DNA of 63,311 bases, filler included, from Basidiobolus ranarum (lineage: Eukaryota), in the NCBI GenBank assembly GCA_040143965.1. It is 24 parts of 24 records of this genome, joined end to end, with 100 filler letters (N's around TTAATTAATTAA, not from the genome) between each part and the next. Parts side by side here need not be neighbours in the genome. Positions count along the whole stretch, not along the records: positions 5,308 to 7,859 come from JASJQH010003213.1; positions 7,960 to 10,511 come from JASJQH010003214.1; 22 more parts are not named here. The stretch is one strand, 5' to 3'. Positions within the stretch are counted from its first letter, which is position 1. Every line of letters begins with the position of its first letter. Position numbers and translations under genes: made by a program. Positions 5,715 to 63,311 of this stretch are shown in pieces. The notes below the pieces were generated by a model. It saw nothing but the letters and a program-made list of their open reading frames with translations. It had not been told where the DNA came from and did not search any database.

Positions 5715-6310
5715 GTTATTGATGGGCTATATGTAAAATAACACCCTTATGTAGGAGGTGTTCTTTTTTGAAAAATATCCTTCTCATGCTGCAACACAAA
5801 CATTTAAAGAAGCCCTGCTATTATTGTAACAAATTCTTGTGCTATGAAAACCAGAGGCTCATAGAAAAAATAATCACAAGCACAGTCACTGTACAAAGCC
5901 ACCAGCAGCACAAAGCCTGGTGTATAACAACAGTAATAAGTGCACTAAATCAACTTTAGCTCAGCTCATTAAGTCCACTGACTGTGCTTTACCTAAAATT
6001 TTTGGTAACACAGCCAAAAGTCAGGATACTGTAGAGTTACCACAGCTACATGACCAGAATGATGTAGGTAGAAATGCAACTTTGGTCAAACCAGTAGGTC
6101 CAGTCAACTTTGAGTACATGCAGCTAGATGTTGACATCAGTCATTCCAGTGCTCATGGTTATATATCAGAAATTGAAGATGACAAAGGTTTTGTTATGGA
6201 CTCTTTGTTATTGGCAAACATTGGTCCACTCATAACACTTACAGTAAAGGAAGCAGCTTTGATTATTGAGGAGTGGAGAGTTCAATCCAATCTTAGCAAC
6301 CAGGTGTTTA

Positions 6311-6593
6311 TGTTGAAATTATTTAGGGAGAAATATTGGTCTGGCCAGGATTTGAACCTGGGACCTTCTTAACTCTAGCAAGGTGCTCTAATCACTGAGT
6401 TACCAGTCCTTGCATTCTATGCCTATATTGCTAGGGAACCTTGACCTAGTCTGTCAATGTATGGTACTTTGGCATTTCAGCTTTACAAGCAACTGATTGG
6501 CCTTAGACTTTGTGTGCAGATGCAGTCACCCTACTCAATATTTTCCTCTTTTGGGAAATACTGCTTGTACCACAAGTCACCAGACTTTCAACA
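6311..6593 (-). mobile_element. Solo LTR (283 bp) carrying a tRNA-like cassette; Helenus/TRIMp3-like
   Basis: TGTTGAAA...TTTCAACA termini and GTTTA 5-bp TSD (6306-6310, 6594-6598). The uninterrupted site is seen in CACTA copies near 22150, 27280 and 47480. Confidence 0.9.
6337..6409 (-). tRNA. tRNA-derived sequence (73 nt, anticodon position AGA, short variable arm), probably not a functional tRNA
   Basis: GGACTGG TA ACTC AGTGATTA GAGC A CCTTG CTAGAGT TAAGA AGGTC CCAGG TTCAAAT CCTGG CCAGACC A: canonical cloverleaf spacing, A-box and B-box, with a few stem mismatches. Confidence 0.8.
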
Positions 6594-7998
6594 GTTTATT
6601 GGTTTTCTTACACTTTTACCACAGTTGATTGGCAACTGTTGCTTGCCACAGACCTGGCACAAGTGGAACAAAGTGGAAAACACTTGTCAAATTGTATAAC
6701 CTATAATCCTTCAGTAATTAAACTACCTTCAGATTCTAATGGTTCATTGGCTTTCAATGGTGATCTAAAAAACCTGAATCCATGAACTATTTGCACATAA
6801 TTGGCAATCACTGAATCAGGTAAATATTGTTTGTATTTGGCTTACATACCATGGATTCCCCATCTTAAAGTTTTGATGAAATCACCCAAATATAGATCAT
6901 TAATTGAATACCAAAGTACTCACTGTAAAGCTGATGGTATTATCAATTTACTTGGAGGATATCACTACCAGAATCTGAAAAGTCAAGGTTTCTTTGAGAA
7001 CATGTATGATCATATAGTTGCATTGGCTCTGGATGGTTTCTTGCTAAACAAATATACCATTTGCAAGGCTTGCTGGCCAATAATATTAGTTAACTTTAAT
7101 ATTCTTCCTTCTGAATGGTATAAGAGTCATATTATTTTGATACTATTCATCATATCTGGACCTAAATAACCAGTGCTTATAGATAACTTCTTGGTGCCTA
7201 TGATTGTGGAATTTAAACGGTTATCTATTGGGGTTCTGCCTGATAAGTATGGGCAACATTGGGAGTTGTTTGTCAATAATGCTAATATATTCTTCTTGCA
7301 TCAACTCACATTGGTAGATCTCAGGCAGATACAGCAATTATGCAAAAATTTGGTAGTTGGATATGAAAAACTTTATTGCAGGTTTAAAGAAGATAGACTG
7401 AATCTATGCCAATATTCAATCCATTCCCTGATGCATCTTTCACAATGCTTAGAGATTATAGGCCGTTGCTATACATTCTGGGAGTTGCCAATGGAGTGCA
7501 CCTGCGGTGAAATGATGCTCTGTGCAAAATCATCAGTATTACTGTATTTTAATCTGATTAACAATGTATCAGCAAAATTGGTGATGGATGTAATATGATG
7601 GGTTAAGGAGACTCCAGAGTAAATTAAACTTCCAACAAAGGGCTCTTTTCAATGTGCCCATGGGTTTTTGCAATGTTTGAGCACAATAACAGCATCAAAG
7701 CACAATCCATGGTCACCAAGTAAGTATCTCTATAATTTGGACTAATTTGTTTGTGTTCTAATCTGATGGTCTTTTTAGGAAAGCTGCAAGACAGACTTCT
7801 TGGTGAGATAGCTCTTGTTATGCAGTATTTTGGTTTTAGCCCTGGGATAATCTATTCAANNNNNNNNNNNNNNNNNNNNNNNNNNNNNNNNNNNNNNNNN
7901 NNNTTAATTAATTAANNNNNNNNNNNNNNNNNNNNNNNNNNNNNNNNNNNNNNNNNNNNTTGCCTAGGTTTGAAGCAGTACATGCTGATTTGCTTCTG

Positions 7999-21201: not shown

Positions 21202-23746
21202 GCTATGGCTCCAGCTGATCCCCTTTATCAATAAAATCTTAGGCTTATGACTAATACCAAGTTTGATGTTAGACTGACTATCTGGTCAGTTGATATCAAC
21301 GATCATGCTGAGACCTGACTGGGCTCTTGATGGTAAAATCATGGAATTTAGTTTTGTATTTGGATGCTAACAATGCACATGCCTGATAGAGTAGACTCCA
21401 TTGGTTTGACAATATCTAGAGCAAGATAGTGCATGGTACCCATGAAAATCTCCAAGTTTGTTGATGGTAGGAGTGTCACCAATACATACAATGATATTAG
21501 CTTAAGTAATATATTCACCCATCTAAACCCCATTAGATAATCATTCAAATTCCACAATCAAAGGATCCAAGAACCTATCTATAAGCACTGGTGATTTTGG
21601 TCCAGTTATGATGGATAGTATCAAAATACTCTGACTCCAAGCCCATTCACAAGGAGGAAGATTTAAGTAAATTTAAATTATTGGCCAGCAAGCCTTTCCA
21701 ATGGCACAATTGTTTAGCAAGAATCCATACAGAGCCTGTGCAAATGCATGATCATACATGTTCTCAAAGAAACCTTGACTTTTCAGACTCTGGTAGTGAT
21801 ATCCATTAGGTATATTGGTAATACTATCAGCTTTATTGTGAGTACTTTGATATTGGAACAATGATCTATGTTTGGGTGATTTCATCAAAACTTTAAGATC
21901 AGGAATCAATGGTATTGAAGTTAATTTCAATGATATTTACCTGATTTGGAGAATGCCAAGTGTGTGCAAACAGTGCATGACTTCAGGTTTTTCAGATCAC
22001 TGGTGAAAGCCAAACAGCCATTTGGACATGAAGGTAGTTTCATTACTGAAGGATTATAAGTGTTACAATTGACAAGCGTTTTCCACTTGTACCAGGTCTG
22101 TTGCAAGCAACAATTGCCAATCCACTGTGGTAAAGTGTAAGAGAACCAATAAACACTAGGTTGCTGAGATTGGATTGAACTATCATGTCATATAACTGCG
22201 GTAACTTCATGGTATTTTCACTTTTGGCAGTGTTACCAAAGCTTTGAGGCAAGGTACAGTCAGTGAACTCAGCGGACAAAACTAAACTTGATTTTGTGCA
22301 CTCATTGCTGTTGATATACACCAGGCTTTGTGCAGCTAGTGGCTTTGTACAGTTACCATGCTGGTGATTACTTTTTCTATGAAGCCTCCAGCTTTCATAG
22401 CACAAGAATTTGTGACAACAATAGCACGGCTTCTTGAAACATCTGTGTGGTGGCATGAGAATGATATTGTGAGAAAAAGAACACCTCCTACTTAAGGGTG
22501 GTATTTTAGGGCCATCTCATCAATATCATCCTCTGATTCTGAGATGGTATCACAGATGAGTCATCAGGGGGTTTACAAAATATTTCTGGATAATGGATGG
22601 CAATTTTGGTTGATTTTCAGCTGATTCTAAGCAATTTCATTACGCTAAGTTTACCATCTGAAGAATTCAAAGCCATTTAAAAAGCATTCAATATCAAAGT
22701 CAAAATTGCATCCAAACCATAGCCTGCTGGCTTGAAAGGAAAAGAACCAGCAATAACAGAGGACTAAATTCATGAGCAGTCTAGCGATACACTATCCACT
22801 TTTTGAAAGCAGCAACATGCCTGAGACTAACTCAAGTAATGAAGAAGCATCAATTAGTTTACCAGATGTGTTCCTTTCCAGTCATAGTGCAAGTAAAGAG
22901 ATTGTAATGCCCCATTTACATAGTAAGTCAGTAGTTCAGGAAAGGTCAGCCAAAGCATCATCAAGACCATCAACTCCCAAAATGACTACTTACAACACAA
23001 TTGAACAACCCTCTGCAGAAAATTTGGATACAGTTATTACAACAAGGGAATTGCAGGCACAACACCATCATGACTTGTATGCAATCATAAGTAAAAACTA
23101 CAAAGTTGCTATAGAGGCCATAACAAGTAATGATGCAACAATATCAGAATTAATGCAATATTTGGAAGCAACTAATCAAAAGTTTGAGAGTAACTTAACA
23201 ATGATAGAACCTTCAGAATACTGTACTTGAGCTACAGCAATATGCTGCCCCCTCTGTCCATTCTCATAAGTAGTTTCAATCAATCCCACACCATACATAT
23301 GAATGTTGCCTTCACAGTCTAGCAGAGCAGAATATGTGTTGGACTAGTAAGTCTACACAACAAACCAAAATTGCTTAGGCACATGAAAATAGAAATCTCA
23401 TGGGAAAAGCAGCTAACCAAAAGACTCTGAATGTCAGAGCTGCCAACACTTGCTCTGATGACAAGTGGTTCAATATTTTGGAAATATATCAAAGAAACTA
23501 GGAATTTTGAAGGTAACAAATTAGCGTTCAAATGGTAAACATGTAAAATTTGAGTTAGGTTTTTGGACATGCATTGATCCATAGTTCTCTGAGACTGTAG
23601 CCAATCATGTGCAACTATTTTGCAAGATCTTGAAATTTCACTCCGGAAACTGAAAAAATTGATTAAAATCAAATCTAACTTGACAATTTTATGATAGTAA
23701 GTAAATAATCAATCCCAATGGATTAAAATTGTGATGGTTTCCTACA
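21202..23746 (-). mobile_element. CACTA family: transposase (-, to 22456) and ORF2 (+, from ~22670, internal deletion near 23485)
   Basis: GFFENMYDHAFAQALYGF...KACWPII; conserved divergent promoter. Confidence 0.85.
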
Positions 23747-23858
23747 NNNNNNNNNNNNNNNNNNNNNNNNNNNNNNNNNNNNNNNNNNNNTTAATTAATT
23801 AANNNNNNNNNNNNNNNNNNNNNNNNNNNNNNNNNNNNNNNNNNNNTCTTGAACGCGA

Positions 23859-24704
23859 GTGGTGGTTGCAGTAATCTTTAGGTTTGAGCGGGATGAACTA
23901 GAGATTCGAATTAATGAGCTATGGGAACAGGTGGATATATTCATTATTGCCGAGTCCGATCGTACATTCACCGGAAAGCCTAAAGAACTGACTTTTCAGA
24001 AGAATCGTGACCGATTCAAATTTGCTGAAAGCAAGATCAGGTATGTTTTCCATCCTGGTCGTGATCTGAAGCCACACGAATCACCATTTCAACAAGAAGG
24101 AGAACTGCGTCAATCCATCACAAGATACCTGGAGGAAGAAAAACTAACGACAGGAGATCTAATCATCATGAGCGATGTTGATGAAATACCCAGAGCGGAC
24201 ACAATTCGATTGTTGCGAACTTGCCGTGGATGGGGAGACATTATCCATCTACAAATGCGTGAATATATATATTCCTTTGAATATTTTTCCAGCATGGACT
24301 TTTGGGCAGCAAGTGTCCACTTGTATAAGCCTGGCTCCACTGAGTATTCCCATGGACGCCGATCAGACAAGATCCTCTCTGATGCAGGATGGCATTGTTC
24401 CTTTTGTTTTCCTGACATTAAGGATTTTCAATTCAAGATGTTGGCGTACTCGCATGCTGATCGCGTTAATAACAACCATATGATGGATGAAGAGATAATT
24501 CGTCAGAAAGTGTGCTCTGGAGAAAATATATTTGGCCTGCTTCCGGAAGTCTATACTTTCAAGGACCTGTTTCTCCGATGGGGACCAATGGCTAGGGTAT
24601 CTTCTTTTGTTGAAGGGCCTGGGTACCTGCTGCTGAATGCCAATCGCTTCAAGTACGTTTTACCTGGGGGGGTGTGCTTGGCTGGAATGATTGAGATAAC
24701 TTGA
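23859..24704 (+). CDS. Glycosyltransferase family 17 (beta-1,4-mannosyl-glycoprotein 4-beta-GlcNAc transferase, MGAT3-like), 5'-partial
   Basis: LEIRINEL...FIIAESDRTFTGKPK...IMSDVDEIP...DAGWHCSFCF...FKMLAYSHADR. Confidence 0.93.
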   Translation: MVVAVIFRFERDELEIRINELWEQVDIFIIAESDRTFTGKPKELTFQKNRDRFKFAESKIRYVFHPGRDLKPHESPFQQEGELRQSITRYLEEEKLTTGDLIIMSDVDEIPRADTIRLLRTCRGWGDIIHLQMREYIYSFEYFSSMDFWAASVHLYKPGSTEYSHGRRSDKILSDAGWHCSFCFPDIKDFQFKMLAYSHADRVNNNHMMDEEIIRQKVCSGENIFGLLPEVYTFKDLFLRWGPMARVSSFVEGPGYLLLNANRFKYVLPGGVCLAGMIEIT

Positions 24705-26489: not shown

Positions 26490-29031
26490 CATCCATTACC
26501 GGAAATATCTTGTAAATCCCCTGATGACTCATCTGTGACACCATCTCAGAATCAGCTGATGATATTGATGGGCTATACCTTAAATACCACCCTTACGTGG
26601 GAGGTGTTCTTTGTTCCACAATATCCTTCTAATACCACAACACATACATTTGAAGAAGCCCTGCTATTATTGGCTTAAATTCTTGATCTGTGAAAGCCAG
26701 AGGCTTCATAGAGAAAATAATCACAAGCATAGTCACTGTACAAAGCACCAGCTGCACAAAGCCTGGTGTATAATAACAGTAAGGAAGCCCTGCTATTATT
26801 GGCTCAAATTCTGGTGCTGTGAAAGCCAGAGGCTTCATAGAAAAAATAATCACAAACATGGTCACTGTACAAAGTCACCTGCTACAGAAAGCCTGGTGAC
26901 TATCAAGGTTAATAAGTGCACAAAATCAATTTTAGTTTTGTCCACTGAGTCCACTGACTGTACTCTGCCTCAAAGTTTTGGTCACACTGCCAAAAGTCAT
27001 GATATGGTGGATATACCACGTTTATATGACCTGAATGATGTAGATAGAATAGCAACTTTGGTCAAACCAGTAAGTCCAGACAACTTTGCTGACATGCTGG
27101 TAGATGTTGACCTTAGTTATTCCAACACTGATGGTAGTATATCAGAAGTTGACAAAGAATAAAACGGTTTAATACAGACTCTTTGTTATTTGCAAGCATT
27201 AGTCCACTAATGACACTTACTTTAAAGGAAGTAGCTTTGATTATTAAGGAGTGAAGAGTTCAATCCAATCTTAGCAACCAAGTTTTTATTGATTTTCTTA
27301 CACTTTTACCACAATTGATTGGCAACTGTTGCTTGCCACAGACCTGGTACAATTGGGAAACACTGGATAATTGTAGAACTTAATCCTTCAGTGATTAAAC
27401 TACCTTCATGACCAAATGGTTGTTAGGCTTTCACCAGTGATCTGAAAAATGTGAAGTCATGTACTGCTTGCACACAATTTGCAATAACTGAATTAGGTAA
27501 ATATTGTTCATATTTTGCTTACATACTGTTGATTCCCCATCTTAGAGTTTTGATGAAATCACCCAAATATAGATCATTGATCCAATACCAAAGTACTCAC
27601 TGTGAAGCTGATGGTACTACCAATATACTTAGTAGATATCACTGACAAAATCTGAAAAGTCAAGGTTTCTTTGAGAACACATATGATTATGCATTTGCAT
27701 TGGCTCTGAATTGTTTCTTGATAACTTGCTGGTCAATAATTTTAATTAATTTCAATCTTTCTCCCTTTGAATGGTCTAAGAGTTATAATACTTTGATACT
27801 ATGCATCATATCTGTTCCTAAAACACCAGTACTTATAGATAGCTTCTTGGAGCCTTTGATTGTGGAATTTGAATGGTTATTTGATGGGGTTCAGATGAGT
27901 GAATACCTCATCAAAGCTATTATCATTTTATGTATTGGTGACACTCCTGCCATCAGTAAACTTGGAGGTTTTTACAGCCACAATGCACTTTCTTGCTGTA
28001 GATTTTGTCAAATCAGTGGAGTATACTCAATCAGGCTGGATTTTGTAATTGGATATGAAAAACATTATTACAGGTTTAAAGAAGAGGGACCAAATCTATG
28101 TACATATTCAACATATTCTCTGCTGAATATTTCACAATGCTTAAAGATTATAGTCACTTGCTATACATTCTGGGAGTTCCTACTGGAGCACACCTGTGGT
28201 GAAATGATGCTCCATGGGGAATCATCAGTATTGCCATATGCTAATCTAATTAATAATGTATCAGCAAAATCAGTGATGGATGTATTGTGATGTGAACAGG
28301 AGACACCAGAGTATATTAACCTTCCAACAAAGGGCTCTTTTCAATGTGCTCACAGATTTTTGCATTTTTTGAGCACAATAATAGTAACAAAGCCCAATGC
28401 ATAGACACAGAGTGGGTGCCTCTATAATTAGGAATAATTTGTTTTTGTAATCATCTGACAAAATTTATAGGAAAGCTGCAAGACAGACTTCTCAATGAGA
28501 TAGATCAAGATATGCAGTATTACTGTTTTAGCCACAGGGTAATCTATTCATGCAATGACAAATCTCATTGTGGCAGGACATTTGTTGACTGCAAGTTAGG
28601 AATATATGGGCTGAACTCTTTATGGAAATATCCTAAAATCTAAGATGTATTCTCATTGTGAATGGTAACAAGAGTTAGCTATTTGGATAAGTATCTCTAT
28701 AATTTGGACTTATTTGTTTGTGTGACTATCTGATGAATTTTCTAGGAAAGCTGCAAGACAGACTTTTTGGTGAGATAGATCCAGATGCACAGGGTTTTTG
28801 CATTGTTTGTGCACAATAACAGCAACAAAGCCAAGTCAATGGACACAGAGTGAGTGTCTCTCTAATTTGGACTAATTTGTTTGTGTAATAATCTGAAGTA
28901 TATCTAGGAAAGCTGCAAGACAGACTTCTTAGTGAGATAGATCAAGATACACAGTATTATTGTGTTTGCCATGGGGTAATCTATCCTAGCAATGACACAT
29001 CAAATTGTGGCAGGACATTTGTTGAATGCAA
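26490..29031 (+). mobile_element. CACTA transposase pseudogene with a ~129-bp internal tandem duplication (26655-26910) and a deletion near 28037
   Basis: CWSIILINFNLSP...GDTPAISKLGGFYSHNALSCCRFC. Confidence 0.88.
28340..29031 (+). repeat. Degenerate tandem (probably subterminal) repeats downstream of the CACTA transposase
   Basis: GGAAAGCTGCAAGACAGACTT at ~28470, ~28746 and ~28907; also at ~7778. Confidence 0.75.
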
Positions 29032-37051: not shown

Positions 37052-38070
37052 TTACCAAAGTTTTCACCTCGAAGAATACGGAGGAATGCTTCAGGTGCGT
37101 TCTCGATACCTTCCATTTTGTCTTCCTTGTACAGCATCTTGCCTTCCTTCAACCAGGTAGGCACATCCTTGGCAAATTGTGATGCGAATTCAGCAGCAAT
37201 TTCACTGACAATGAATCCTTGGAATCTGATTCTCTTACTCAATACCAAGGCAATGTTGTAAATTGGCTCAGGATTAGAAAAGCGGTTGTATTGTGAGATC
37301 ATGCCACAGACGGGAATACGAGCAAAGTCATTGCAATGCTTCAACACTGTATCCAGCATCTTACCACCGACATTCTCAAAGTACACATCAATGCCGTTGG
37401 GGCATGACTCGGACAGAGCTTGATCCAAGTCAACCTTCTTGTAGTTGAATGCGGCATCGAACTTCAACTCTTTCAATAGGTACTCAACCTTGGAGTCATC
37501 TCCGGCAGTACCTACGACTCGAAGTCCTTTGACCTTGGCAATCTGACCAACCACCTGACCAACAGCACCCGATGCAGCAGAGATGAAGATGGTTTCACCT
37601 TCCTTAGGTTCTCCGATCTTGAACAAACCTGCGTATGCAGTCATTCCAGGCATACCGAGAACTCCAAGATAGTATGACAATGGAATGGACGATTCACGAG
37701 CACCTTCAATCTTGCGCAAATCCTTGCCCCCGGAAATGATGGTGTAGTTCTCCCAGCCGACCATACTAGTGACAATATCACCTTCCTTGTATTCAGGATT
37801 CTTAGATTTGATTACTTCACTGATACCACCGGCTTGCATAACCTCACCTAGGGTGAAGGCAGGAGCGTAGGACTTGGTTCCCGCAGGACGCATTCTACCA
37901 CGCATATATGGGTCCACGGACATATACAAGTTGCGGAGGAGAACATCATTGTCATTAAGAGAGACAGAGTTGACATCGAATTCTTTGGTGACCAACTCGA
38001 TGTCTTTGCCAACGACAGGCATACCCTCGGGGACTTGTTTGAAGATTACTTGAGTGTTATTGGAAGCCAT
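37052..38070 (-). CDS. NADPH-dependent alkenal/prostaglandin reductase-like MDR oxidoreductase, copy 1 (last codons missing)
   Basis: SVDPYMRGRM, LGMPGMTAYAGL, SAASGAVGQVVGQIAK, YFENVGG, CGMISQYN, GENFGK. Confidence 0.95.
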
Positions 38071-38771
38071 GTTATTGAATTTTTGATTTAAAATGATATG
38101 AGTTCTGCAGAGGGCAGTCCCTACTTTATATAGTTGACTTTATTTTGATACCTTCTTTGAATCCTTCCATTCAATTAGTCAGCACTTTTTTTAATACGTC
38201 GACTTATCGAGACTTGGTAGTGATATTCATTAACGTTGATTACTAAATATTTAAACTCAAATGTCTATCTAATTAACTACATCATTAAAAACCTCTTTGC
38301 TCTTTGATTTCCCCACTCAATTCTCAGCTAATGAATACTTCGGTTACTCGGAAGATTTCCCGATAGGTGTGTATGCCTGTACTACTTTGGTTTTGAACAA
38401 GATGGTGATATTTCAATAATTTATATAGCATTGATTGTGGTAGAAGAATGAACCATATTTATTGTTATAAAATTTAGCCAAACTTTGGGTTGTTCATGCT
38501 TATTATATTGTTCGTAGTGGATAGATATATGTCTACAATATAAATGGTTCTTAAAGAAATATTTTAACAGTTAAGTAAAAAACTTCTTTTAGCATGCTTA
38601 TACAGCTATAGTTACATGCAATCGACATACTTCCAACTAGTATTTAAAAATGAGTTCTAAATTTTACAATATATGCACCTCAGTTCTGGTGATGTTCATT
38701 TATTCTTTATTATATCATTAATTGTTTATGCTGGGGAACGAATGCTTTACATTTTGATTTCATTACTTGAT

Positions 38772-39590
38772 TTAAAGATCAGCAAGCTTCACAACTTGCT
38801 TACCAAAGTTCTCACCTCGAAGGATACGAAGGAAGGCTTCAGGTGCGTTCTCAATACCTTCCATTTTGTCTTCCTTGTACACCATCTTACCTTCCTTCAA
38901 CCAGGTAGGAACATCTTTGGAGAATTGTGAAGCAAATTCAGCGGCAATTTCACTAACAATGAATCCTTGGAATCTGATTCTCTTGCTCAACACCAAAGCA
39001 ATGTTGTAAATTGGCTCAGGATTAGAAAAGCGGTTGTATTGTGAGATCATACCACAGACGGGGATACGAGCAAAGTCATTGCAATGCTTCAACACTGTAT
39101 CCAGCATCTTACCACCGACATTCTCAAAGTACACATCAATGCCGTTGGGGCATGACTCGGACAGAGCTTGATCCAAGTCAACCTTCTTGTAGTTGAATGC
39201 GGCATCGAACTTCAACTCTTTCAATAGGTACTCAACCTTGGAGTCATCTCCGGCAGTACCTACGACTCGAAGTCCTTTGACCTTGGCAATCTGACCAACC
39301 ACCTGACCAACAGCACCCGATGCAGCAGAGATGAAGATGGTTTCACCTTCCTTAGGTTCTCCGATCTTGAACAAACCTGCGTATGCAGTCATTCCAGGCA
39401 TACCGAGAACTCCAAGATAGTATGACAATGGAATGGACGATTCACGAGCACCTTCAATCTTGCGCAAATCCTTGCCCCCGGAAATGACAGTGTAGTTCTC
39501 CCAACCAATCATACCAGTGACAATATCACCTTCCTTGTATTCAGGGTTCTTGGATTTGATCACTTCACTGACACCACCGGCTTGCATAAC
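38772..39590 (-). CDS. NADPH-dependent alkenal/prostaglandin reductase-like oxidoreductase, copy 2 (5'-truncated)
   Basis: Nearly identical to copy 1, offset 1748 bp; ends GKQVVKLADL*. Confidence 0.93.
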   Translation of the reverse strand, partial: VMQAGGVSEVIKSKNPEYKEGDIVTGMIGWENYTVISGGKDLRKIEGARESSIPLSYYLGVLGMPGMTAYAGLFKIGEPKEGETIFISAASGAVGQVVGQIAKVKGLRVVGTAGDDSKVEYLLKELKFDAAFNYKKVDLDQALSESCPNGIDVYFENVGGKMLDTVLKHCNDFARIPVCGMISQYNRFSNPEPIYNIALVLSKRIRFQGFIVSEIAAEFASQFSKDVPTWLKEGKMVYKEDKMEGIENAPEAFLRILRGENFGKQVVKLADL

Positions 39591-44967: not shown

Positions 44968-47505
44968 GTCAGGATTTCACCTGAGAGATATGCACCAAGC
45001 AAGAATCTTGTAGGAAAACCAGACAGCTAAAAGACTTTAATTGTCAAAGCTGCTGTCACTTCCTCCAGTGATAGGAAAACTAGAAAACCAAAATACTCTG
45101 AATGTCAGAGTTGCCATCACTTGCTCTGATGATGAGTGGTTTAACATTTTCAAAGCTATAAGGAATCTTGCTCAAAATCACCTTTATTTGGGCCAGTCAT
45201 GGAAAAGTCAAAGACCAGGGGTTACTCAGAAGGTTCTTGACTTATTTCATGTAGTTTATCCTGGGTTTTTACAAGCAAATTGCAATTGGCCCAGTATAGT
45301 CCTCTTCATGAAATATCTCAAAAATGTACACAATTATTATGTTGGAACAGAAACAAAGTAGCTACAAATGTACCCAAGCAGCAAGAAGCTGGAAAACCTG
45401 AGGGAAAAGCAAAGGAGCAAGTGTTTATTGCTCTAATATCTCACTAACCAATTTCTTCATGCCATTACAAAGACCTGAATTTCTTGAGTCAGATTTACCA
45501 GCATAGATATAGGCATAAAGGCTTGACTTTACTGTGTCACCAAGAACATCAGTTGCAAGAGTTCAAAAGTTGTAAGTTTATTCAACACTTGGCACCTCTC
45601 AACAAGCCAAGCTATCAGCAAATAATACTCTTTGCTCTCCAACCTCAACTGGCACTCTTAAGAGTATCCAAATACACCTCAAACTTAAAGGCAAGTAAAA
45701 ATCCACCCAAACATCACAGAGTACACCAAGTAGTGTCACACTACCAGGATGTAAAAACTAGTAAAAGGGCTTGAGGAGTACTTTAAAAGTATGAAGGGAA
45801 AAGCACAAAGCAAGTATGCAGCAAGTGGCTTCAGAAGAAGCATATTCATGTTGCCATTCAGTCTAGTGTTTACCATTTGCATACTTGGGAAGAACCTAAC
45901 ATCACAATTGGCTCAAATCCAGGTGATTTTGGCCAAGATTCCACACAGTCTCCAAAATGTTAAACCCCTCATCATCAAAGCAGGTGACAGCAGCTCTGAC
46001 ATTCAGAGTCTTTTGGTTTACTGGTTTTCCTATACATTTTCTACTTTCATGTGCCCATGCAATTTTTGATTGTTATGTAGGCTTAATGGTCTAACACATA
46101 TTATACTCTGCTAGATTGTCACAATGATGTTCATCTGTATGGTGTGGGATTGATTGAAGTCCTGTATGAGAATGGATGGTAAGAGCAGCATGTTGCTATA
46201 TCTCAAGTTCAGCATTCTGAAGGTCTTGTATCATTGTTGAGCAACTCTCTAACTTTTGACTTCTAGGTTCCAAACACTGCATTAATTATAATATAGTGGC
46301 ATTATTGTCTGTCACCACCTGTATAGCCACTTCATAGTTTTTACTTGTGATTGCACACAAATCATTATGGTGTTCTGCTAGAAATTCCGCTGTTGTAATA
46401 ATTCTTTCCAAATTTTCTACAGAGGCTTGTTCAGTGCTTGGCAAGGTAGCAATTTTGGAAGTTGATGGTCTTGGCAGTGTTTCTATTGAACTTTGCTCAA
46501 TTATTGACTTATTGCATGATTGGGGAATTGCAATCTCTTAACTTGCACTGTTGCTGGAAAGGAACCCATCTGGTAAATTGATAGATGCTTCATCATTAGT
46601 TGACTTAGTTTCTAGCATATCAATGCCTGCCAAAGTGGATAGTGTATTGCTAGATTGCTCATCAATAAAGTCCTCTGTTCTTGCTGGTTTTTTTACTCTT
46701 GTGCCAGCTGGCTTTGGCTTGGAAGTCAATTTTAATTTAGATTTTCAAAGCTTTTTGAATGGCATTAAAATTTTCAGATGGTAAAGTTGGTATAATGGCA
46801 TTGCTTAGAAACAGCCTAAAATAAACCAAAATTGCCATCCATTACCGGAAATATCTTATAAATCCCCTGATGACTCATCTTTGACACCATCTCTGAGTCA
46901 GCTGATGATATCAACTGGCTATATCTAAAATACTACCCTTGCATTGGAGATGTTATTTTTCCTGCAATATTCTTCTCATGCCACAACATATTTGTTTAAA
47001 AAAGCCTGGCTATTATTGTCACAAATTCTTGTGCTGTGTAAGCTGGAGGCTTGATAGAAACAATAATCACAAGCACAGTCACTGCACAAAGCCTGTCAAA
47101 TAGCATCATTAACAAGTACAAAATAGACTTTAGTTATACTCACTGAGTTCACTGGCTATGCTTTGCATCAAAGTTTTAGTGAGACTGCCAAAAGTCAAGA
47201 TACCACGGAGTTGCCACAGTTATATGCCAAGAAAGATGTAGGTAGAAATTCAACTTTGTTCAAACCTATAAGTCCAGACAACTTTGAGGACATGCTGCTT
47301 GATGTTGACCTTGGTTATTCCAGTACTCATGGTAGTATATCAGTAGTAGGAGAAGAAGACAGCAGTTTTGTTATGGACTCTTTATTATTGGCAAGCAATA
47401 GTCCACTCATACACCCACAGTAAAGGAAGCAGCTTTGATTATTGAGGACTGGTGTGTTCAATTTAACCTTAGTAACCAGGTGTTTATTGATTATTTTACA
47501 CTTTT
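44968..47505. mobile_element. CACTA family: ORF2 (+, to ~45890), inverted ORF2 (-, ~45900-46790), promoter and transposase 5' part (+)
   Basis: Homologous to the other copies; the segment at ~45090-45200 recurs inverted at ~45905-46020. Confidence 0.8.
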
Positions 47506-58000: not shown

Positions 58001-58149
58001 TGGCCTTGTTAGAGTCTGACCCATTAGCACGATTGTTGTTATTGCTGTTNNNNNNNNNNNNNNNNNNNNNNNNNNNNNNNNNNNNNNNNNNNNTTAATTA
58101 ATTAANNNNNNNNNNNNNNNNNNNNNNNNNNNNNNNNNNNNNNNNNNNN

Positions 58150-58328
58150 ATGCTATGCCTATATTGCTAGGGAATCTCAACCTAGTCTGTCAATGAATGG
58201 TACTTTTGCATATCAGCTATACAAGAAACTGATTGGACTTAGGATTTGTGTTCAGATGCAGTCACTATATTCCATATTTTCTTCTTTGGGAATTACTGCT
58301 TGTACCACAAGTCACCAGACTTTCAACG
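58150..58328 (-). mobile_element. Second, truncated copy of the tRNA-bearing LTR
   Basis: Homologous to 6413-6593; ends TTTCAAC(G); abuts CACTA ORF2. Confidence 0.8.
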
Positions 58329-59094: not shown

Positions 59095-60681
59095 AAACTA
59101 TCAATAGGACATATTTAATCCAATAAAACTTTAGTGTCTAATTCACAAATCCAAATCTTGTCCAAAACACTTACAAATCCCCTAAACACTTTTATCAGGT
59201 TATGAGCCCCAAGCTAGCTGTCAAAGCAATGTCTACCAGTACTATTACCAATGTTTTTGCACTCACAGAAAAGTTGAATGGTGAGGGCTCTCAACTTTGG
59301 AGGTTCAAGAGGCAAATGGTGCTAGAAGACAAGGACCTTTGGGGATTTGTTACTGGAGAAGAAATAAAGCTTAAAGGACCACCAGAAGTTATCCATGCCC
59401 TTCAAAAGAAGCAGAGGAAAGGTCTATCCACAATTTATCTACATCTCAGAGATTCTCAATTGAGGCATGTAAAATAAGCCCAAATGACCAAAATGTTTCA
59501 ATCAGCCAAAAACATCCAAAATGCTTGGGAAACACTTGAGGGACTATATGAGACTAAAGTTCTGGCTAATAGGCTACATCTTGGGCAAGAATTATTCTCA
59601 ATTCAGATGAATCCTGATGATTATATGCTTAATCATATATGTTGGATTAAAACTATGGCAGATCAGCTCTCATCCATTGGAGCACCTCTATATGAAGACA
59701 ACTTAGTCATGACACTACTTAGAAGCCTGCCAGACATGTTTCAGAGCCACATAGCTGCCCTAGAATCAAGATCAGAGCCATTAACAATGAAATATGTTGG
59801 TGCTAGGCTTTTGAATGAAGAATTGAGGAGATCTATTCTCAGCAAAATCATGCAGAACAGGCATTTTTTGGAGCTGTAAAATGTCCAACAGGCTTGACTA
59901 ATGGTGCCCCTATTAGGAAATTAATCATCTGCAACTATTGCAAGAAACCAGGCCATTTAATCAAAGATTGCAGAAAAAGGATTTTTGCCAAAAAGCTAAA
60001 GTGGGATCAAGCAATCAAAGTAAACACTGATGGGGATCTTCTATTTGTGTCTGCCCTATCAGTAACCATCAAAGAAGACTCAGAAACATGGTACATTGAT
60101 TCAGGAGCTTCTCAGTATATGTCAAACAGGAAAGATTGGTTTTCCAGCTTAAAACCAATCCAAACAAGGAAAGTCTACTTAGGTGATGACTATGCACTAG
60201 ATGCAGTTGGTAAGGGCAAAGGTGTACTGAACTTAGACCAATGTTCAGCTACACCATCTACAAAATTGGATGATGTACTCTATGTACCAAATATAGCCAA
60301 GAATCCACTCTTAGTAAGCCAAGCAACAACTCAGGGACTAAATTTTGTGTTCAGTAAGGCTAGATGCAATATCAGAGATCACATAAATACCAAATTAGCC
60401 ACTGGGATTAAAACTCAAAACTCATAAAAGCTAGAAATCAGCAAATTTCATACTGGGCATGCAAACTTGGCCAAACCTGCTAATGTAAGTTGTCAAATGT
60501 GGCATAGAAGACTAGGCCACAATGGGGAACATAAATTGACCCAAATGATCCAAAATCAGCTTGTTTCAGGCTTGGAAATTGGAAATATCACTGAATTGAA
60601 TCTGTGTGAAGGTTGAATATATGGAAAAATCACCGACGCCCATTTTCAACCTCAGGAGATAACAAATCCACTCAGAGTTTT
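59095..60681 (+). mobile_element. Ty1/copia element 5' part: LTR end, PBS, gag, protease, pre-integrase (few stops)
   Basis: EKLNGEGSQLWRFK, LLRSLP, CNYCKKPGHLIKDC zinc knuckle, WYIDSGAS, WHRRLGH. Confidence 0.93.
59198..59209 (+). promoter_or_regulatory. Primer-binding site GGTTATGAGCCC (internal tRNA-iMet half)
   Basis: Directly follows LTR-terminal CA; complementary to the iMet anticodon arm GGGCTCATAACC. Confidence 0.85.
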
Positions 60682-60781: not shown

Positions 60782-61090
60782 CTAATTCCTGCTTTAAAAC
60801 CTAAATGCTGTGACCGGCGTTCCACGCACTTACTCCCCCAAGGCGCCACTTCAGGTTCTCTAGAGACTACATCTTAAAGCTCCCTGTCTTCCAGCATGGT
60901 TTGCATCTTGAACTTCCAGAAATTGAAATTTTCTCCATCAAGCTTTTCACCACTTGAGTTAATAAAAGTGTTGGTAGTGGTTTCTGTCATGCTGTCAATT
61001 TTTGGAACACTGGGCTCATAAACTAATGGGAAAATATGGGCTGTTTGGAGGAGCTTTAGAAAAGTGGAGTTCTGAATAGCTGTGTGAGAT
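60782..61090 (-). mobile_element. Copia 5' LTR end, PBS (61012-61023) and gag start (ATG 60990)
   Basis: GEKLDGENFNFWKFKMQTMLEDREL*; the LTR piece matches 52881-52945. Confidence 0.8.
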
Positions 61091-62587: not shown

Positions 62588-62908
62588 TGTTGAAATAAGC
62601 ATTGCCTAAGCACCCATATAGTTGTATATAGCTTATTATTTAGTTAACTTATATTTCACTAACATATTATGCATTTTTCTCAATCAGAATTTACTTTAAA
62701 TAATATTACTAACTTAGAAGTTCTCAAAGATATACATTTTTAAGCTTTTGCTAGAAGCCACACTCTTAGCACACATGTTCCTGGGACCATACTTACATCT
62801 CGACAAAAGTACAAATATCAACTCTGCACTAAATATATCATCAGGTGAAAACCACCAATTCTATTGGTTCTCCATATTACTTCCAACAACCCCCAAAATA
62901 CTTCAACA
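62588..62908 (+). mobile_element. Copia 3' LTR (family A, 321 bp) after PPT TTGAGGGAAAG
   Basis: TGTTGAAAT...ACTTCAACA. Confidence 0.9.
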
Positions 62909-62990: not shown

Positions 62991-63311
62991 TGTTAAAGTA
63001 TTTGGGAGCCTGTTGGAAGTTGTTTGGAGAATTAGAGGAATTGGTGGTTTTGACTTATTGATTTATTGAGTAGAAAGTTCACATTTATAGTTATGTCAAC
63101 ATGTAAACAAACTAATGTGTAGAATATGTTAAGGAAGGTCCCAGGAACATGTGTGCAAAGTTTGGGTCTTCCAGCAAAAGTTTGAAAAATCTAAATATCT
63201 GAGAACTTCTAAGTTGGTGTCAATATTCTAAGTAAATTCCGATTGAGAATAATTGATAATATCTTAGTGAATTATAAGGTAACTAAGTACTAAGCTATAT
63301 ATGACTATATA
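62991..63311 (-). mobile_element. Family A LTR in inverted orientation
   Basis: Reverse-complement homolog of 62588-62908 and 40340-40680. Confidence 0.85.

Follow-up and report, generated by a model that had tools for sequence, protein, structure and literature searches.

The 63,311-nucleotide stretch of Basidiobolus ranarum DNA analysed here (GenBank assembly GCA_040143965.1; hereafter, the window) contains a 283-bp insertion that is probably the solo long terminal repeat (LTR) of a Helenus-type element, that is, of a small LTR retrotransposon with a tRNA-derived module near the 3′ end of its LTR, moved in trans by an element of the copia superfamily. Elements of the Helenus type were already described in 2024 (Kojima 2024, PMC10886601), and what is new is probably the host, which belongs to a lineage not listed for Helenus. 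The window consists of 24 contigs of 2,530–2,554 bp in descending order of size, separated by linkers of the form N44-TTAATTAATTAA-N44 (for example, at 2555–2654 and 58050–58149). Because the contigs were joined in this way, features on either side of a linker are not genomic neighbours, and the ‘sister copies’ of a repeat referred to below are separate contigs of a fragmented assembly. The GC content is similar among all of the contigs (0.33–0.41).

An LTR-type insertion within a CACTA repeat

The insertion lies within contig c3 (5308–7859) and reads as an LTR on the minus strand (Table 1). On the plus strand of the window, TGTTGAAA occupies 6311–6318 and TTTCAACA occupies 6586–6593, so that the two ends form an 8-bp inverted repeat. 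In the minus-strand sense, the order is TGTTGAAA, a further 176 nt, a tRNA-like unit in sense orientation (LTR positions 185–257) and a 26-nt tail ending in TTTCAACA. The sequences on both sides belong to a repeat family with 80–88% identity among contigs. The copy of this family in contig c11 contains a Transposase_21 domain (tnp2, CACTA/EnSpm; Pfam, E = 4.3e-13), and an open reading frame (ORF) of contig c3 matched a 698-aa Transposase_21 protein at 81% identity in a protein search. All three sister CACTA copies that span the insertion point have a precise empty site, with a single GTTTA (c9 and c18) or TTTTA (c11) and contiguous flanks. The TG..CA termini, the 5-bp duplication and the empty sites support an insertion of the LTR type. 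An earlier reading of the window made from its sequence alone (the sequence-only reading) had described a 283-bp element with 8-bp inverted termini, a perfect GTTTA target site duplication and empty sites in three sister CACTA copies, and all of these check out at the coordinates given in Table 1.

The sequence-only reading had also placed a second copy at another CACTA site, and this copy was found at 58150–58327 with 88.8% identity to the first. Within this CACTA family its site is not that of the first copy, its outer boundary agrees with that of the 283-bp LTR to within 1 nt, and its site is empty in all four of the sister copies concerned (c18, c9, c5 and c7). To judge from the roughly 11% by which the two copies differ, the 283-bp copy is old. 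The second copy begins where its contig (c23) begins, and other contig ends in the window also fall at repeat edges. It may be precisely at the tRNA-like module that the copies diverge or pile up.

The notion of an element that hops into CACTA elements held in part. Both copies do lie inside CACTA repeats, but the CACTA family makes up 31.5% of the non-N bases of the window, and at this coverage two of two insertions would fall within it by chance in about 1 in 10 cases (~0.1). A target preference for CACTA was therefore dropped.

A tRNA-like unit near the 3′ end of the LTR

ARAGORN called a single tRNA in the whole window, tRNA-Ser(aga), at 6337–6409 on the minus strand. With the Rfam tRNA model it reached 46.1 bits, the gathering score being 29 (E = 1.7e-8, local; 1.2e-6, whole window), and tRNA was the sole Rfam family to reach threshold in the window. 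The B box, GGTTCAAATCC (6358–6348), is intact. The claims made for this part of the insertion, a 73-nt unit with A- and B-box regions that sits 26 nt from the LTR end with no run of four thymines (T4) downstream, agree with the Rfam and ARAGORN results and with T runs of at most 3. The same is true of the proposal that an AGA anticodon on a body with a short variable arm is unlike a normal tRNA-Ser: the variable loop has 5 nt, a length found in no tRNA-Ser, and a unit that combines it with an AGA anticodon is not a normal tRNA-Ser. Nor is the unit a working tRNA.

Another idea considered was that the unit's complement, with TGG at its start, might be an over-long primer binding site (PBS) or a relic of strong-stop cDNA. 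This candidate was rejected because only 26 nt precede the complement on that strand, and because the adjoining end reads CAACA, not TGTTG, in the sense of the tRNA.

The hexamers CAATAT and TCCCTA are found on both sides of the unit, with their order swapped (6410–6440 and 6311–6342, minus strand). They are there either by chance or as a remnant of the event in which the LTR first captured a tRNA or short interspersed nuclear element (SINE).

Comparison with Helenus

Helenus elements are miniature terminal-repeat retrotransposons (TRIMs) with tRNA-derived sequence in their LTRs and are one of the groups proposed as TRIMp3 (Kojima 2024, PMC10886601). According to that paper, they have a PBS and a polypurine tract (PPT) between two LTRs, a short non-coding internal part and a total length of ~0.3–1.3 kb. 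Their target site duplications are 5 bp in fungi and plants and 4 bp in animals (4–6 bp overall), solo LTRs flanked by duplications are common, and copia is presumed to move the fungal elements (PMC10886601). Their RNA polymerase III (Pol III) promoter boxes are TRGCY..YGG (box A) and GGTTC (box B), and transcription by Pol III is deduced from the conservation of these boxes, not demonstrated (PMC10886601). What the sequence-only reading had stated about Helenus, namely LTRs of tRNA-like character, fungal duplications of 5 bp and a presumed helper role for copia, is all contained in the paper.

We compared the insertion with 26 complete LTR consensuses from rust fungi (DataS1, part 1, PMC10886601), by eye and by look-ups of short motifs. 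Read on its minus strand, the 283-bp LTR shares the layout of fungal Helenus LTRs: a TGTTG start, a variable part, a tRNA-like unit in sense orientation, a short tail and a CA end. By eye, 26 of the 26 rust consensuses have a sense unit close to the 3′ end and, after it, a short tail. The rust tails measure ~14 to 55 nt where counted, compared with 26 nt here, and the length of 283 bp is near the values given for fungal Helenus LTRs, which include 116, 220, 236, 247 and 269 bp (Table S1, PMC10886601). TGTTGAA is the start of several rust LTRs, and the last bases of one of them are AATTTCAACA, as in the 283-bp LTR.

The likeness extends beyond layout. LTR-type termini with a 5-bp duplication, GTTTA, and empty sites are found here, as is tRNA-derived sequence inside the LTR (Rfam, 46.1 bits; ARAGORN, Ser(aga)), with a conserved B box and with an anticodon and body that together fit no real isotype. 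Rust genomes yield masses of false tRNA calls from Helenus, tRNA-Ser-AGA among them (Table 2, PMC10886601), which is the same false call as was obtained for the unit in B. ranarum. Moreover, the termini are of the copia type, and the same genome holds copia with a PBS of the GGTTATGAGCC type. A PBS of this type occurs in most fungal Helenus elements and in rust copia, with priming from the anticodon arm of the initiator tRNA (PMC10886601).

Two short matches concern the unit itself. Its 22-nt T arm is identical to those of Helenus-2_MLP and Helenus-4_CroRib, which is no sign of kinship, as explained below. Its 9-nt anticodon-loop string occurs eight times in Kojima’s supplement, and both of the passages listed belong to rust families of one group; we take this as a lead only. 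It is conceivable, though in our view quite improbable, that Helenus-type elements occur in an early-diverging fungal lineage and that the present family has a common origin with the ‘Ser-AGA’ Helenus group of rusts; the features in common are the anticodon-loop string, the T arm and a similar tail.

The host itself is a difference. The fungal hosts given in Table 1 and Table S1 of PMC10886601 are Pucciniales and a few Agaricomycetes only, and Basidiobolus lies outside both. A term search of the supplement for ‘Basidiobol’, ‘Zoopag’, ‘Mucor’ and ‘Entomoph’ returned no match. Kojima’s screen began from Repbase and covered only relatives of known hosts (PMC10886601), so that the lack of a host from the list is not evidence of its absence. 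The papers listed for Basidiobolus retrotransposons, as judged by titles and abstracts, contained nothing on TRIMs, and within the literature on TRIMp3, Kojima 2024 alone was relevant. Among the papers listed for Helenus, one other mentions Kojima 2024 in passing.

Points against a Helenus-type origin

Several observations weigh against a Helenus-type origin. The A-box region, TAACTCAGTGA (6402–6392), is degenerate, with two departures from the consensus TRGCNNAGTGG. Set against the Helenus box A, TRGCY..YGG, it reads TAACT..TGA, with one departure in each half, the sequence being that of a single old copy and not a consensus; the A box appears weakened relative to Helenus. A cloverleaf can be drawn with three mismatched stem pairs, but folding to minimum energy gives a structure other than a cloverleaf (z = −1.35; 22 of 200 shuffled sequences fold at least as well). 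The longest T run downstream of the unit on the sense strand is 3, with no T4, whereas by eye a T4 or longer run follows the unit in all 26 rust consensuses. The missing T4 run is possibly due to decay, this being a single copy that is ~11% diverged from its sibling. In its layout and size, and in its termini and duplication, the insertion corresponds to a fungal Helenus LTR; the T4 run and the A box are points of difference.

The remaining points concern the family to which the LTR belongs, the element here being known, in contrast to Helenus, from a solo LTR and one cut copy alone. The second copy is truncated by the start of its contig (58150, c23) 4 nt before the tRNA-like part and therefore gives no information on whether the unit recurs, so that the unit is visible in one of the two LTR copies. 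Within the window and its 2.5-kb contigs there is no two-LTR copy, PBS or PPT of the family of the 283-bp LTR, and the miniature size and non-autonomy of the element are accordingly presumptive. Exact-match searches with a 26-mer taken from the LTR's conserved outer portion returned nothing from metagenome contigs or from viral contigs, and a protein search with the longest ORF of the LTR (49 aa) found no protein. Finally, the 22-nt T arm that the element shares with some rust Helenus elements recurs unchanged in no fewer than 120 contigs from metagenomes, to which ARAGORN assigns ordinary tRNAs (67 Met-cat and 13 Val-cac calls, along with other types, among the matches listed). In a BLAST search of the element against these contigs, only the tRNA part aligned, and no Helenus relatives were seen among the matches listed. 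Because it also occurs in contigs with ordinary tRNAs, identity of the T arm is not diagnostic of kinship.

Alternative origins of the insertion

The insertion could instead be a solo LTR left by a longer LTR retrotransposon of ordinary type, either an autonomous copia element or a large non-autonomous derivative, transcribed by RNA polymerase II, whose LTR happens to hold a piece of a tRNA or SINE. The weak A box, the absence of a T4 run and the lack of an internal region in the window speak for such an LTR, and ‘not a few’ LTRs in Repbase hold tRNA-like parts, of which just some are TRIMs (PMC10886601). However, the interior of the LTR is unlike that of the one comparable copia LTR, the placement of the unit and the length of the tail match those of rust Helenus LTRs, and 283 bp is close to the fungal Helenus lengths of Table S1. 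On balance, an origin from a longer element appears fairly unlikely.

A one-off event, in which a tRNA-derived SINE or a copy of a tRNA entered only this LTR copy once the LTR was already in place, fits the single visible copy with the unit, the second copy ending 4 nt short of it, and the presence of CAATAT and TCCCTA on both sides. The order of the two hexamers is swapped, however, so they do not form a simple duplication. If CAATAT alone is taken as the duplication, the inserted piece starts 15 nt upstream of the unit, but the second copy has those bases too. Moreover, there is no A-rich or simple-repeat tail, and the unit is exactly the size of a tRNA and is placed as in Helenus LTRs. We therefore consider a one-off insertion very unlikely.

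It is extremely improbable that the insertion is a miniature inverted-repeat transposable element, that is, a miniature DNA transposon with a captured tRNA-like piece, which its small size and perfect 8-bp terminal inverted repeats might suggest, because TGTTG...CAACA with a 5-bp duplication is the signature of a copia LTR, a copia LTR of the window has the same ends, no subterminal repeat structure is present and, to our knowledge, Transib, the ends of which differ, is the only DNA transposon superfamily with 5-bp duplications.

Two known kinds of element resemble the insertion in part. In Cassandra, a plant TRIM to which Kojima’s text also refers, both LTRs incorporate a small-RNA gene that has its Pol III promoter inside it. 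The Cassandra unit is derived from 5S rRNA, whereas the unit here is tRNA-like, and Cassandra belongs to a plant lineage; the Rfam scan of the window found no 5S match, its only match being tRNA. Like the insertion, SINE2 elements include a module of tRNA origin that bears A and B boxes, occur as interspersed copies and give rise to false tRNA gene calls. In contrast to the insertion, they carry the tRNA head at the 5′ end, are moved by a long interspersed nuclear element, and have duplications of variable length and a 3′ tail that is LINE-type or A-rich. The insertion has its unit at positions 185–257 of 283, TG..CA ends, a 5-bp duplication and a 26-nt tail that finishes in CAACA.

Copia elements as candidate helpers

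The sequence-only reading had taken a match between the termini of the insertion and those of a resident copia LTR (copia-A; Table 1) as a pointer to copia as the helper. The match is found: at the 5′ end 8 of 8 bases agree, at the 3′ end 14 of 18 do, and the stretches in between are not similar. The other two copia LTR ends visible in the window (one preceding the PBS at 59198, the other at 61023, minus strand) differ from the end of the 283-bp LTR. One of the two copia PBS copies is an exact GGTTATGAGCC and the other has one mismatch, and Pfam places a copia gag with zf-CCHC and Pol_BBD at 59819–60427. Copia is a plausible candidate for the helper of a Helenus-type element in this genome; as to dependence, the shared termini and 5-bp duplication would amount to a resemblance only.

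Two LTRs of the same copia family face each other ~83 bp apart, at 62588–62908 (plus strand) and ~62992–63311 (minus strand). The latter runs off the contig end, and more fragments of that copia family are present in contigs c16 and c10.

Table 1 Coordinates of the 283-bp insertion, its empty sites and second copy, and the copia features of the window
Feature	Position	Strand	Remarks
Solo LTR, 283 bp	6311..6593	-	5′ TGTTGAAA at 6593-6586 and 3′ TTTCAACA at 6318-6311 (minus-strand sense)
Target site duplication GTTTA, left copy	6306..6310	.	Perfect 5-bp match to right copy
Target site duplication GTTTA, right copy	6594..6598	.	Perfect 5-bp match to left copy
Part upstream of tRNA-like unit, 184 nt	6410..6593	-	U3-like under the Pol III model; conserved in second copy
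tRNA-like unit, 73 nt	6337..6409	-	Anticodon AGA, 5-nt variable loop; LTR positions 185-257; ARAGORN and Rfam
Tail from tRNA-like unit to LTR 3′ end, 26 nt	6311..6336	-	T runs of at most 3
Empty site, sister CACTA copy c11, TTTTA	~27284..27288	+	Single copy, homology unbroken on both sides
Empty site, sister CACTA copy c9, GTTTA	~22150..22154	-	Single copy, homology unbroken on both sides
Empty site, sister CACTA copy c18, GTTTA	~47482..47486	+	Single copy, homology unbroken on both sides
Second LTR copy, element positions 104-282	58150..58327	-	88.8% identity over 179 columns
Copia 3′ LTR (copia-A)	62588..62908	+	After pol end and purine tract; termini only in common with 283-bp LTR
Copia PBS GGTTATGAGCC	59198..59208	+	Directly downstream of LTR end, upstream of gag ORF (zf-CCHC, Pol_BBD)
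Second copia PBS, GGTTATGAGCC type	61013..61023	-	Directly after LTR end, before gag

Proposed mechanism

A mechanism in five steps can be proposed for a Helenus-type element of this kind, of which we count only the insertion (the fourth step) as demonstrated and infer the others. In the first step, transcription factor IIIC (TFIIIC) and Pol III would use the A and B boxes of the tRNA-like unit in the 5′ LTR, with a start near LTR position 185. The transcript would then pass through the tail of 26 nt, where no T4 stop occurs, and on through the PBS, the short internal part, the PPT and the upstream 184 nt of the 3′ LTR, to stop at or after the second tRNA-like unit, which would act as the repeated R region. 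In the third step, copia reverse transcriptase would copy this transcript. Copia integrase would recognise the TGTTGAAA...TTTCAACA ends and insert the copy with a 5-bp duplication, and in the last step recombination between the two LTRs would leave a solo LTR between identical GTTTA repeats.

Other genes in the window

Two intron-free ORFs for zinc-type enoyl/alkenal reductases (ADH_N_2 and ADH_zinc_N) lie in tandem at 37052–38139 and 38772–39590, both on the minus strand. The pair has 80–88% identity to proteins of Basidiobolus ranarum and B. meristosporus, and for the 362-aa reductase ORF (contig c15, not the contig of the insertion) the nearest matches after Basidiobolus are from other early-diverging fungi and plants (45–58%). 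A protein atlas had placed the reductase ORF in Streptophyta, a placement overruled by the direct protein search. An ORF for a glycosyltransferase of family 17 is present at 23853–24704 on the plus strand (E = 3e-108), and the same contig holds a fragment of the CACTA family and a fragment of a copia-A LTR. The presence of all three on one contig indicates that ordinary genes and both repeat families belong to one genome.

Discussion

If the insertion is confirmed in the full assembly as the LTR of a Helenus-type element, the range of such elements would extend past Basidiomycota to a fungus of the zygomycete grade. Such an extension would lend support to the idea that LTRs carrying a tRNA module arise, or persist, widely. 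Should the family in addition prove to share descent with the rust ‘Ser-AGA’ Helenus, tRNA-bearing TRIMs would be far older than the ~130 million years proposed for Pucciniales, or would have moved between distant fungi. LTRs of this kind also inflate tRNA gene counts, the sole ‘tRNA’ in 61 kb here being the unit of the 283-bp LTR, and they could spread binding sites for Pol III and TFIIIC across a repeat-rich genome.

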